IMG/VR virus record: IMGVR_UViG_3300020419_000004
Source: a virus
Strand: one strand, 5' to 3'
Length of the DNA stretch: 64,000 bases
The notes below the pieces were generated by a model that was given only the letters and a program-made list of their open reading frames with translations, did no database searches and had not been told where the DNA came from. Positions 37,109 to 40,273 of this stretch are shown here, one piece after another. The position numbers and the translations under genes are program-made. Position 1 is the stretch's first letter; each line of letters begins with the position of its first letter.

Positions 37109-38319
37109 TGAGTAAGAACACACACCTCGAACACTTAGAAGATAGCATCCTCCTTGATGGTAAAGAGGGTGCTACAGATGCTTTTGTGTTCTTGGATGAA
37201 CTTGCTAAGACTTTTAGTGCTGGTGGTAATAATAACTTAAAAATTACTACTAAATGGGACGGTGCACCTGCTGTATTCTGTGGCACATATCCTGGCACCA
37301 ATAGATTTTTTGTTGGTAGTAAATCTATCTTCAATAAGGATGCCAAGATCAATTTTACACACTCAGATGTAGATGCATACCATGGTGGGTCACCTGGTCT
37401 TGCTACTAAGTTGAAAGATTGTCTGACTTACCTCCCTGATCTAGGCATTAAGGGTATAGCACAGGGTGACTTACTCTTTACTGATGATAAAGAAAAGAAA
37501 AAAATTGATGGACAGGACTGTCTTATATTTCAACCCAATACTATCACCTATTGTATCCCTTCAGAGGATGAACTATATGAAAAGGCACTCAAAGCAAAAC
37601 TTGGTATAGTATTTCATACCAGTTATAGTGGTAGTACTATCCAAGGGTTGAAAGCATCGTTTGGATACAACGTTAACCAACTAAACAACAGTAAAGATGT
37701 GTTAGTTCTTAGTGCTGAGACAGAACAACTAGGTAATGACATCTTACTTGATAGTTCTGAGAAGAATGAACTGGTATCAATAAGGACTAAGAGTGCTAGT
37801 CTGGTAGCAGGTACGTTCCTAGACACCATGGCAGAGCATAATGCAGGTAAAGATCAGTTAGCTGTTGGAACTAGACTAAAGATCTTCTTTAACAAGTATG
37901 TTAGAGAGGGTAAAAAGATGGGATCATCCGTTACAGTTGTAAAAGAATTTAAAAAGTACTTTGAGGATGAGTGTAGGAAGGCAGCAGACAAATTGAAGTC
38001 ACCAAAAGGTAAGGCAGGTAAACTTGCTAAGTTATATGATGGTCAAGATCTTATCAAGAAGCATGAGAGTGACTTAACCAAGACGATTGATCTATATAAG
38101 AACCTCCAGTTGGCAAAGGAGATGTTCATTCGTAAACTAGAGAAGGGTGAAAGGTTTGGTACATATCTCAGGACAGAGAATGGGTACAAGATCACTGCAC
38201 CAGAGGGATATGTTGCTATCCAAGAGGGATCTAAGGCAGTTAAACTGGTTGATCGTCTCACCTTTAGTGTTGCCAACTTCAATGTAGAAAAGAACTGGGT
38301 CGCAGGAGATAGTAAATGA
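37108..38319 (+). CDS. DUF6267-like protein with ATP-dependent ligase/nucleotidyltransferase motifs
   Basis: TKWDG (I), QGDL (III), PEGYV (IV), AVKLVDR (V). Confidence 0.7.
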   Translation: MSKNTHLEHLEDSILLDGKEGATDAFVFLDELAKTFSAGGNNNLKITTKWDGAPAVFCGTYPGTNRFFVGSKSIFNKDAKINFTHSDVDAYHGGSPGLATKLKDCLTYLPDLGIKGIAQGDLLFTDDKEKKKIDGQDCLIFQPNTITYCIPSEDELYEKALKAKLGIVFHTSYSGSTIQGLKASFGYNVNQLNNSKDVLVLSAETEQLGNDILLDSSEKNELVSIRTKSASLVAGTFLDTMAEHNAGKDQLAVGTRLKIFFNKYVREGKKMGSSVTVVKEFKKYFEDECRKAADKLKSPKGKAGKLAKLYDGQDLIKKHESDLTKTIDLYKNLQLAKEMFIRKLEKGERFGTYLRTENGYKITAPEGYVAIQEGSKAVKLVDRLTFSVANFNVEKNWVAGDSK

Positions 38320-38867
38320 GCACATGTTATTTCACATTTGGTAGGTTCAATCCACCCACCATAGGACACGAAAAACTTATCAAGGCAGTGGAGAAAGAAG
38401 CGGGTTCTAGTGACTGGTTGATCTTTCCATCACAGACACACAAAAAACCAGATAATCCATTGCCATATGAGTATAAGGTTTCCGTAATGCAGAAGATGTT
38501 TCCGTTTGCTGCAGATCATATTGATGAAAAGGCATGTTGCAATACTATTATTAAAGTTGCACAGCATTTAATGATGAAAGACTATAGTGACCTCATAATG
38601 GTGGTGGGTTCTGATAGGGTAACTGACTTTGATAAGATACTACAGAAATATAATAGGGTAGACTTCTCATTTAGTACTATTCAAGTTGTATCTGCTGGTG
38701 AGAGAGATCCAGACGCGGAAGGTGCCAGTGGAATGTCTGCAAGTAAGATGAGAGCAGCAGCAAAAGATGTAAAAACAGTAGATTTTATGAGTGGAATACC
38801 AGATACTATGAGTGCTGAAGATAAACTAGAGCTCATGGCAAAGGTTAGAGAGGGTATGGGCTTATAA
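38316..38867 (+). CDS. Cytidylyltransferase-like nucleotidyltransferase
   Basis: FGRFNPPTIGH, VVGSDR, MSASKMR. Confidence 0.9.
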   Translation: MSTCYFTFGRFNPPTIGHEKLIKAVEKEAGSSDWLIFPSQTHKKPDNPLPYEYKVSVMQKMFPFAADHIDEKACCNTIIKVAQHLMMKDYSDLIMVVGSDRVTDFDKILQKYNRVDFSFSTIQVVSAGERDPDAEGASGMSASKMRAAAKDVKTVDFMSGIPDTMSAEDKLELMAKVREGMGL

Positions 38868-38870
38868 ATA
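38863..38870 (+). promoter_or_regulatory. Late promoter (TATAAATA)
   Basis: Full consensus upstream of ATG 38895. Confidence 0.75.
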
Positions 38871-38894
38871 AGTTTGATATGTACATCTATATTA

Positions 38895-40088
38895 ATGAAA
38901 TCTTTCTCTGACTTTGCAAAGAAAACGCAAGCCGCGGAAAAAAACATCACTCGTGACAAGTTCTATAAGAACGAAGTCTATAAAAAAGGAGAGTGGGTTT
39001 TAACTGAAGCTGGTCAGGTAGGTAAGATTTTACGTCGAGGTCCTAACTATGTGCTGTGTCTTACTGCTGAAGAAACAACCTTCCGCACTTGGATTACAGA
39101 CATCAAAGAAGTATTCGAGATTGGAACTGATGCGTATCGTGAGTATGTTATGTCATTAACGCCTGGTCAGAAGGTACAGAAACCTTCAGGTACAGTTGCA
39201 GTTAAACAAGTTATTCCAACAGACCCTAAAAAAGATAAGATGAGCCATCACGAGGAAAAGAAGTCACTAGCACAATTAGCTGCTGAGACAAGTTTAAACA
39301 CTAAGTTCAAGAGTGTTAAAGAGACATGGAGATATGATTACTCCGCAACCATAGGTAACACAGACATTAAAGGCAAGGGTGCTGATGGTGTAGGTGGTGG
39401 TGATGCACCAGGTATGAAACTTGCAGAACCAAAGGGTGAAGAAGGTAAACCAGAAATAAAAAAGGTAAAGCATTCATGTGCTACTAAGGTAGAGCATGCA
39501 GAGTGGGGCACAGGTAACTGTCTATCAGGAGAGCATACTCTTCTAGAAGATGGAACTGTAACACACTATGATGTTATGTTTGAGCATGGACTAGAGAAAA
39601 ATGTCGCTGTTGAAGACATTACTATTACTAAAGAAGCAGTTCATGAGCATGTTACTAGACCAGAAGGTAACATAGATCAAGAAGAAGTAAACACTGATCT
39701 ACCTGCAGGACCACACGGACAGACTTTCGTAGAACCTGCAATCAAGTCAGAAGGATACGGTAAAGGTAGTAAGAAGAAGAAGGCACAGGAAGAAAGATCC
39801 GAAGTCGTTGGTGAAGAGAAGAAAAAGAAAGGCAAGGGTAAGTTCTGGCAAGACTCTGATGGTGATGGTAAGTGGTACGAAAAGGATGACGTAAAGAAAG
39901 AAGAGACTGTTGAAGAAGGTAAGGGTCTCTATGCTAACATCCATGCTAAGAGAAAGCGTGGTGAGAAAATGCGTAGTAAGGGTGACAAAGGTGCACCAAG
40001 TGAGAAGGACTTTAAAGATTCAGCGAAGACAGCTAAGAAAGAATCATTATCTTTCGCAGCATTCAGGAGTATTGCTGAAAAAAAGTAA
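38895..40088 (+). CDS. Mosaic K/E-rich putative internal head protein
   Basis: MKSFSDF start; HSCATKVEHAEWG, WQDSDGDGKWYE and GLYANIHAKRKR modules; late promoter. Confidence 0.7.
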   Translation: MKSFSDFAKKTQAAEKNITRDKFYKNEVYKKGEWVLTEAGQVGKILRRGPNYVLCLTAEETTFRTWITDIKEVFEIGTDAYREYVMSLTPGQKVQKPSGTVAVKQVIPTDPKKDKMSHHEEKKSLAQLAAETSLNTKFKSVKETWRYDYSATIGNTDIKGKGADGVGGGDAPGMKLAEPKGEEGKPEIKKVKHSCATKVEHAEWGTGNCLSGEHTLLEDGTVTHYDVMFEHGLEKNVAVEDITITKEAVHEHVTRPEGNIDQEEVNTDLPAGPHGQTFVEPAIKSEGYGKGSKKKKAQEERSEVVGEEKKKKGKGKFWQDSDGDGKWYEKDDVKKEETVEEGKGLYANIHAKRKRGEKMRSKGDKGAPSEKDFKDSAKTAKKESLSFAAFRSIAEKK

Positions 40089-40126
40089 GTGGGACTGTCG
40101 AGGTGATGCCTACGATGGAGGATCCC
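40065..40126 (+). other. Candidate -1 programmed ribosomal frameshift signal
   Basis: AGGAG - 9 nt - A AAA AAG - TAA - stem-loop starting 5 nt downstream. Confidence 0.6.
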
Positions 40127-40273
40127 GATGGTCGTAAACATGGTAATGAACCAGCACCTAAGGTTGACGAGAAGACTGGGAAGGTAAAGAAGATGACTTG
40201 CAATCACACCAAAGAAGGTGTAGAATGTCCAGTACACGGAAGTAAAGGTTGTCCGAATATAATAAACGTTTAG
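40106..40273 (+). CDS. 55-aa Cys/His ORF in the -1 frame; probably the frameshift extension of 38895-40088
   Basis: MPTMEDPDG...CNHTKEGVECPVHGSKGCP; frame open back to the slippery site. Confidence 0.65.
   Translation: MPTMEDPDGRKHGNEPAPKVDEKTGKVKKMTCNHTKEGVECPVHGSKGCPNIINV

Follow-up and report, generated by a model that had tools for sequence, protein, structure and literature searches.

The DNA considered here is a stretch of 64,000 nucleotides (nt) from the IMG/VR virus record IMGVR_UViG_3300020419_000004, called the window below, and our subject is the end of one of its genes, which encodes a protein of 397 amino acids (aa) and stops directly behind the heptamer A_AAA_AAG. We consider it likely that a programmed -1 ribosomal frameshift takes place at the last two sense codons of this putatively late cyanomyovirus gene. 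An earlier sequence-only reading of the window had proposed a frameshift cassette of the type known from Escherichia coli dnaX at this place, and the proposal is now backed by conservation, by maintenance of the reading frame, by a coding signature ahead of an internal ATG, by covarying pairs within the hairpin, and by one relative, locus L206, in which the parts are fused in frame. The features by which a dnaX/IS3-type cassette can be recognized in a sequence, namely the heptamer, an open and constrained -1 frame, a 5' Shine-Dalgarno-like (SD-like) element and a 3' stem-loop, were all found. Their coordinates are collected in Table 1.

In the proposed mechanism, most ribosomes would read GAA AAA AAG, then meet TAA and release the 397-aa protein. 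A fraction would slip back by one base on the heptamer, with the lysine tRNAs re-pairing with AAA AAA, and these ribosomes would next read GUA and continue for 62 codons, to yield a predicted trans-frame product of 459 aa that ends in a Cys3-His motif. Probable stimulators are the AGGAG 9 nt upstream, with which the tail of the 16S rRNA would pair, the hairpin 7 nt downstream, and the adjacent stop codon. As to the last of these, a stop beside a slippery run is said to be able to promote shifting by itself, and such "shifty stops" were reportedly described by Weiss and colleagues in 1987. In E. coli, it is the presence of one tRNA-Lys(UUU) decoding both AAA and AAG that makes A_AAA_AAG shifty; the window has no tRNA genes. 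The slip itself, its efficiency and any binding of zinc are what we infer from the sequence.

Table 1. Coordinates of the cassette and of associated features (window positions, unless a locus is named).
Feature	Position	Strand	Basis or remark
Slippery heptamer A_AAA_AAG	40079..40085	+	read GAA AAA AAG in the 0 frame
0-frame stop TAA, directly 3' of the heptamer	40086..40088	+	sequence
AGGAG, internal Shine-Dalgarno-like element	40065..40069	+	9 nt 5' of the heptamer
3' stem-loop, 7 nt past the heptamer, encloses the internal ATG	40093..40133	+	fold and relatives
-1 extension, 62 codons and TAG (40271-40273)	40085..40273	+	open to 40270; matches phrog_32143
Internal ATG, start of a separate small gene in relatives' annotations	40106..40108	+	Met invariant
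Cys/His motif C-x8-C-P-x-H-G-x3-C of the tail	40199..40252	+	C39, C48, H51, C56 invariant
0-frame gene: modular, lysine-rich putative late protein, 397 aa and TAA, phrog_22379	38895..40088	+	homologues
TATAAATA, T4-type late-promoter-like box	38863..38870	+	24 nt 5' of ATG 38895
Split N-terminal open reading frames	L055 1822-2100 and 2075-2980; L175 645-920 and 895-1620; also L176, L177, L178		

We start with the slip site. The AGGAG, the 9-nt gap, the heptamer and the TAA are all exactly where the sequence-only reading had placed them, with the heptamer lying within an A7 run (40078-40084). AAAAAAG occurs 29 times in the window when both strands are counted, and only at one of these sites does a long upstream open reading frame (ORF) meet a stop right after the site, with the -1 frame staying open over a long distance. 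The conservation of the site was assessed with two scans of IMG/VR that were made independent of the heptamer, the first using peptide patterns of the tail and the second a degenerate DNA pattern for the motif VE[VI]MP[ED][LI][DE]D. The first scan gave 49 loci which, together with the phages P-HM1, P-HM2 and MED4-213 and the window itself, make up 45 unique junctions. GAA AAA AAG is present in all 45, while codons -3 to -16 vary freely, and the -1 frame is open into the tail in every one of them. The stop follows the heptamer directly in all these junctions except that of P-HM2, where it comes one codon later.

The second scan gave 85 unique contexts. An in-register heptamer lies within 60 nt in 74 of these; three more (L186, L199 and L230) have TC_A_AAA_AAG and a stop 23 codons upstream of the motif, with an A run of only six; one (L206) is a single ORF with the linker fused in frame and without the heptamer; and the remaining seven are unrelated proteins. 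The heptamer with its stop is thus found in 77 of the 78 related junctions. Since the sub-lineage formed by L186, L199 and L230 keeps the heptamer with A6, conservation applies to the heptamer itself rather than to an extended run of A. Nor can the invariance of GAA AAA AAG be put down to codon bias, because codon usage in the same genes is mixed (57% AAG and 43% AAA for lysine, 55% GAA and 45% GAG for glutamate). Altogether, 102 of 103 unique junctions have a stop directly after the heptamer, and its identity varies (TAA 66, TAG 34, TGA 2). At the protein level, the best 120 homologues of the 0-frame product end in EKK in 102 cases and in EKKQ in 10, and none of these 120 runs on into the tail.

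We now turn to the -1 frame. The 62 open codons described in the sequence-only reading are indeed there, starting from 40085, and the peptide quoted in it was reproduced exactly. The peptide that would run from the Val after the slip site through the Met, a predicted tryptic one, is VSGTVEVMPTMEDPDGR in the window. In the relatives, the tail is annotated as a gene of its own, starting from the ATG or from a GTG. The distance from the slip site to the annotated ATG is 18-30 nt and always a multiple of three, and third codon positions vary most within it. When a heptamer-anchored pattern was used that allowed any spacer of 12-27 nt, 94 unique matches were obtained, and in 92 of them the spacer is 12, 15, 18 or 21 nt, which means that the ATG stays in the -1 frame; the two matches with other lengths are unrelated sequences.

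The stretch ahead of the ATG also has the character of a coding sequence. In the class with a seven-codon spacer (58 of the 103 junctions), the entropies at codon positions 1, 2 and 3 are 0.71, 0.42 and 1.26, respectively, and synonymous changes leave the peptide V-x-G-P-V-E-V intact. The periodicity is weak in the eight-codon class (40 junctions), for which the corresponding values are 0.98, 0.68 and 1.01. No alternative start codon upstream of the annotated ATG is conserved among the junctions. The Met, for its part, is also kept as an internal residue, both in ORFs of the type found in phage S-RSM4 and in the in-frame fusion L206, which makes its conservation a poorer argument for a role as a start.

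The element upstream of the heptamer is well positioned. Of the 103 unique junctions, 90 have GGAG at a distance of 8-12 nt on the 5' side of the heptamer, while in the rest of these genes it turns up in 5.4% of 16-nt windows. For stimulation of -1 shifts by an SD element, the spacing is 9-14 nt (PMC5009743).

On the other side of the heptamer, nearly every junction folds a hairpin that begins 6-10 nt past it. In the window, the stem consists of the pairs 40093-40100/40126-40133, 40102-40104/40122-40124 and 40109-40110/40117-40118. The minimum free energy of the window sequence is -17.0 kcal/mol and that of the fold conserved in the relatives -15.2 kcal/mol, and both structures pair 40093-40100 with 40126-40133. 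The hairpin given in the sequence-only reading, at 40091-40126, is able to form (-13.8 kcal/mol), but its pairing to the first CGAUGG is specific to the window, while the conserved fold uses the second. With a 14-pair structure set by hand on 39 unique aligned sequences, 86% of the cells are paired, compared to 31-58% in slid controls. Three covarying pairs show compensatory changes, and for one of the column pairs (A-U in 15 sequences, G-C in 15 and G-U in 7) at least three clades with a switch can be read off the alignment. The covariation score was reached by none of 500 shuffles.

The folding energies are in line with this. For the 63 nt past the slip site, the mean is -18.6 kcal/mol, compared to -11.6 kcal/mol for synonymous shuffles that preserve the peptide (mean z -2.3), and the window hairpin itself has a z of -2.5 in one test against synonymous shuffles and of -1.7 in a second. 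RNAalifold on the whole alignment yields a weak consensus of -4.8 kcal/mol, because the clades use either a bulged or an unbulged register. It is important to point out two deviations. The A6 sub-lineage lacks GGAG and a consistent hairpin. The idea that the hairpin is a strict marker of frameshifting was rejected, as S-RSM4-type loci without the heptamer keep it; it is absent from the fusion L206. Taken over the relatives, the scan counts and the covariation establish that the SD-like element, the heptamer, the stop and the hairpin are all four conserved, which was the check that the sequence-only reading had called for.

The tail that the shifted ribosomes would add carries four candidate ligands at fixed spacing, C-x8-C-x2-H-x4-C, and these residues are invariant in 39 unique tails, which supports the Cys/His character that had been claimed for the extension. 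Judging from this pattern, the Cys3-His motif may bind a metal. The tail gave no match in a Pfam search or in a sequence search against the solved structures in the PDB, and its AlphaFold2 model, with a predicted local distance difference test score (pLDDT) of 62, is without a defined fold. A tblastn match in phage S-SM2 was dropped, as it has E = 0.01 and lies within an unrelated large gene. A search for the tail fused inside longer proteins found none, which is weak evidence; L206 came later, from the motif scan. This locus (+ strand, 684-1544) is a single ORF of 281 aa that has no slippery site and runs through the EKK/VEVMP linker in one frame; the Cys/His module is likewise in frame and is placed close to the N-terminal end of this homologous protein. 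The Cys/His module is therefore a genuine module of the protein family, beyond being the product of a free-standing gene.

Several observations weigh against a frameshift. The Met at 40106 is invariant and has GAGG 2 nt 5' of its ATG in about half of the relatives, so to judge from these signals the tail could also be made on its own. The S-RSM4-type phages (L177 1590-1690, L240 1825-1925) have no heptamer; their downstream ORF starts in the same -1 frame at a TAATG/ATGA start-stop overlap, with the VEVMP motif 25-30 residues inside it, which means that separate expression is viable. The hairpin around the VEVMP codons in these heptamer-less loci implies that it possibly has an additional role, and in the window it is only moderately stable (z -1.3 against mononucleotide shuffles). 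In L239 (990-1030), a single metagenome contig, the heptamer is changed to AAAAACAG and AGGAG to AGGTG with the Cys/His tail intact; the shift may have been lost in this lineage, or else the changes are sequencing errors. The invariant ATG, the separate gene annotated in relatives including P-HM1 and P-HM2, the S-RSM4-type phages and L239 are all in favor of two independent genes, with a 56-aa Cys/His peptide made only from its own ATG (40106) or GTG (40103) and the heptamer being incidental. We nevertheless hold this to be quite improbable, as it leaves unexplained the invariant heptamer with its immediate stop, the multiple-of-three spacer with its third-position variation and conserved pre-ATG peptide, and the position of the ATG inside a hairpin together with the fusion L206, and the Met is kept also where it is internal. 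Another rival is termination-reinitiation coupling, in which ribosomes would stop at TAA, be retained by GGAG and begin anew at the ATG, which lies 18 nt further on. In its favor, the stop is near the ATG, and an SD-like element before the stop is typical of coupled genes (PMC5009743). However, coupling needs neither a fixed frame nor a slippery heptamer nor coding conservation in the spacer, and the GGAG is 36 nt away from the ATG, which makes this option very unlikely.

The same fusion protein could also arise ahead of translation, if the polymerase added one A in the A7 run so that an A8 mRNA was made. We regard such transcriptional slippage as quite unlikely. A run of seven is short for efficient slippage by the polymerase, the A6 sub-lineage keeps the exact X_XXY_YYZ pattern with its stop, and slippage of a polymerase would have no use for the terminal G, the positioned GGAG or the 3' hairpin, all of which are stimulators that act on the ribosome. 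What speaks for it is that the product would be identical and that A runs are known slippage sites, as in Thermus dnaX (PMC5009743). As for a sequencing or assembly error, with a true run of A8 and one continuous ORF, homopolymer errors are common; the A7 (or A6) run with its stop recurs, however, in over 100 distinct sequences, which come from isolate genomes (Sanger, 454 and Illumina) and from many metagenomes, and since these were assembled independently, the error can in practice be excluded. Of these readings, the programmed ribosomal frameshift is the one that agrees best with the comparison of the relatives.

The cassette is common to more than 100 distinct relatives in several cyanomyovirus genera. 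Besides P-HM1, P-HM2 and MED4-213, the isolates Syn1, S-PM2, S-CAM3, Sf-CH11 and S-RIM44 have the same joint. In S-PM2 it corresponds to p142/p143, with a DUF3008 tail of 95 aa, in S-CAM3 and Sf-CH11 the stop after the heptamer is TGA, and the S-RIM44 junction has 95-100% DNA identity to that of Syn1. S-PM2 and Syn1 share with the window the EKK, the heptamer, the stop and the V..VEVMP junction, but their tails have 51-95 residues and are lysine-rich or of the DUF3008 type, whereas the Eurybiavirus-like lineage of the window has the Cys/His tail. Over 120 pattern-anchored loci, the -1 extensions begin at ca 30 aa, with lysine-rich tails, and reach more than 250 aa; in the longest, the Cys/His motif is combined with a further conserved module and DUF6321. 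Two loci of this kind are L064 (3482-4135, - strand) and L142 (4975-5742, + strand), with -1 extensions of 218-256 aa in which the Cys/His motif is followed by DUF6321; there, a frameshift would enlarge the protein by more than half again.

The upstream C-termini differ as well, and L005 joins one upstream type to the other downstream type. The modules found upstream of the joint include CW.GYK/PNCV and ANIHAKRKR, and those found downstream include the Cys/His tail, DUF3008 and DUF6321 as well as lysine-rich tails of 30 to more than 250 residues. Over the relatives, the cassette stays the same while the protein modules on its two sides are exchanged. Tentatively, and with somewhat less than even confidence, we suggest that the joint, from the last codons up to EKK through the heptamer and the stop to the hairpin encoding V..VEVMPELDD, is a portable and recombination-stable unit on both sides of which modules are swapped, so that an interchangeable C-terminal module would be placed on a fixed, sub-stoichiometric share of a late and possibly virion-associated protein.

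It remains to describe the gene and its surroundings. The window belongs to a T4-like cyanomyovirus with ca 77% DNA identity to the Prochlorococcus phages P-HM1, P-HM2 and MED4-213 (genus Eurybiavirus). The 0-frame gene is preceded by a DUF6267 gene and a true cytidylyltransferase (PF01467), and followed by a TlmH-like Asp/Arg hydroxylase and a head-protein gene. The listed ORF is 38874..40088, with a translation of 404 aa; the alignments with the PHROG and the homologues begin at ATG 38895, which is therefore taken as the true start. In P-HM1 and P-HM2, the gene is T4-like gene cluster 534. None of its 1248 homologues has an informative name, Pfam searches with the 404-aa translation and with the P-HM1 homologue gave no match, and a search of the ESM Atlas with the 397-aa protein returned viral hypothetical proteins only. 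The AlphaFold2 model of this protein is of low confidence (pLDDT 43). The label "possible cytidyltransferase", applicable to the ORF at 38874-40088 and to the homologues in P-HM1, P-HM2 and P-SSM7, has no domain support, as the Pfam searches found no PF01467 domain; the PHROG matches to cytidylyltransferase-labelled proteins cover only their non-catalytic extensions, and the real cytidylyltransferase is the preceding gene (38316-38867).

The late character that had been claimed for the protein is supported by the TATAAATA box ahead of ATG 38895, which 46 of 50 related loci also have, at position -32 relative to the ATG. There are four copies of TATAAATA in the whole window, no more than expected by chance, and the evidence rests therefore on position and conservation. 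On these grounds, it is a fair reading that the 0-frame gene is a T4-type late gene.

Two further observations concern the build-up of the 0-frame protein. Its module GLYANIHAKRKRG... (window 39921-40047) has 73-75% DNA identity to free-standing genes of 43-44 aa, namely gp37 of Pelagibacter phage HTVC033P and gp31 of Roseobacter podovirus CRP-125, the latter placed between the scaffold and capsid genes. From these matches, it looks like a tiny module that moves between unrelated marine phages. In Syn1, S-PM2, S-CAM3, S-RSM4 and Sf-CH11, an ORF of its own, with ca 90 aa and mis-annotated as the alpha subunit of ribonucleotide reductase, encodes the N-terminal domain and overlaps the next ORF, in the +1 frame, by ca 25 nt; this domain and the part that follows it form a single ORF in the window and in P-HM1/2. 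A TATAAATA box lies within this N-terminal ORF overlap in L206.

T4-like cyanophages are among the most abundant viruses of the ocean, and to our knowledge their genomes are annotated without any recoding events. If the frameshift does take place, the "hypothetical" gene pair of P-HM1, P-HM2, MED4-213, S-PM2, Syn1, S-RIM44, S-CAM3 and uncultured relatives would be one gene with two products, and the current annotations would miss the longer one. The use of Shine-Dalgarno pairing in picocyanobacteria is debated. The relatives would constitute a natural and deeply sampled series of dnaX-like cassettes, in which the SD spacing, the hairpin register, the identity of the stop and the tail type vary, and the results point to a family of small shuffled modules in the late programme of these phages. 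The sequence-only reading knew of no report of such a frameshift in T4-like cyanophages, and our own searches of the literature on cyanophage frameshifting, on S-PM2 and on T4-like comparative genomics likewise found none for this gene. In the searched text of a 2016 review on recoding, the word "cyanophage" is absent (PMC5009743). The mechanism as such is classical.

Finally, the cassette can be compared to known systems. With the tau/gamma site of E. coli dnaX it shares the heptamer A_AAA_AAG, the SD-like element (ca 10 nt upstream in dnaX) and the stem-loop (6-7 nt downstream in dnaX) (PMC5009743). There are, however, clear differences: the dnaX shift leads to the shorter product, with a stop one codon into the -1 frame, while here the shift would lead to the longer one and it is the 0 frame that stops after the heptamer. 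The two genes also belong to unrelated families. The arrangement with a 0-frame stop and a longer shifted product is found in the dnaX of a few bacteria (PMC5009743). The OrfA/OrfAB pairs of the IS3 family (IS911, IS150) also have A_AAA_AAG near the end of the first ORF, which yields a fusion with the second, and these cassettes often have an SD-like element upstream and a structure on the 3' side (PMC5009743). Unlike in that family, there is no transposase or mobile element here, the stop is immediately beside the heptamer, and the second ORF is tiny.

The third comparison is with the tail assembly chaperone G/GT of long-tailed phages. In phage lambda its slip site is G_GGA_AAG, which differs from the one discussed here, and the sequences are not similar. 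The G/GT site is flanked by the genes for the tail tube and the tape measure, whereas the gene in the window is located beside the cytidylyltransferase and the head-protein gene. What the two systems would have in common is that a -1 shift in a late phage gene gives rise to a minor isoform extended at its C-terminus (PMC5009743).

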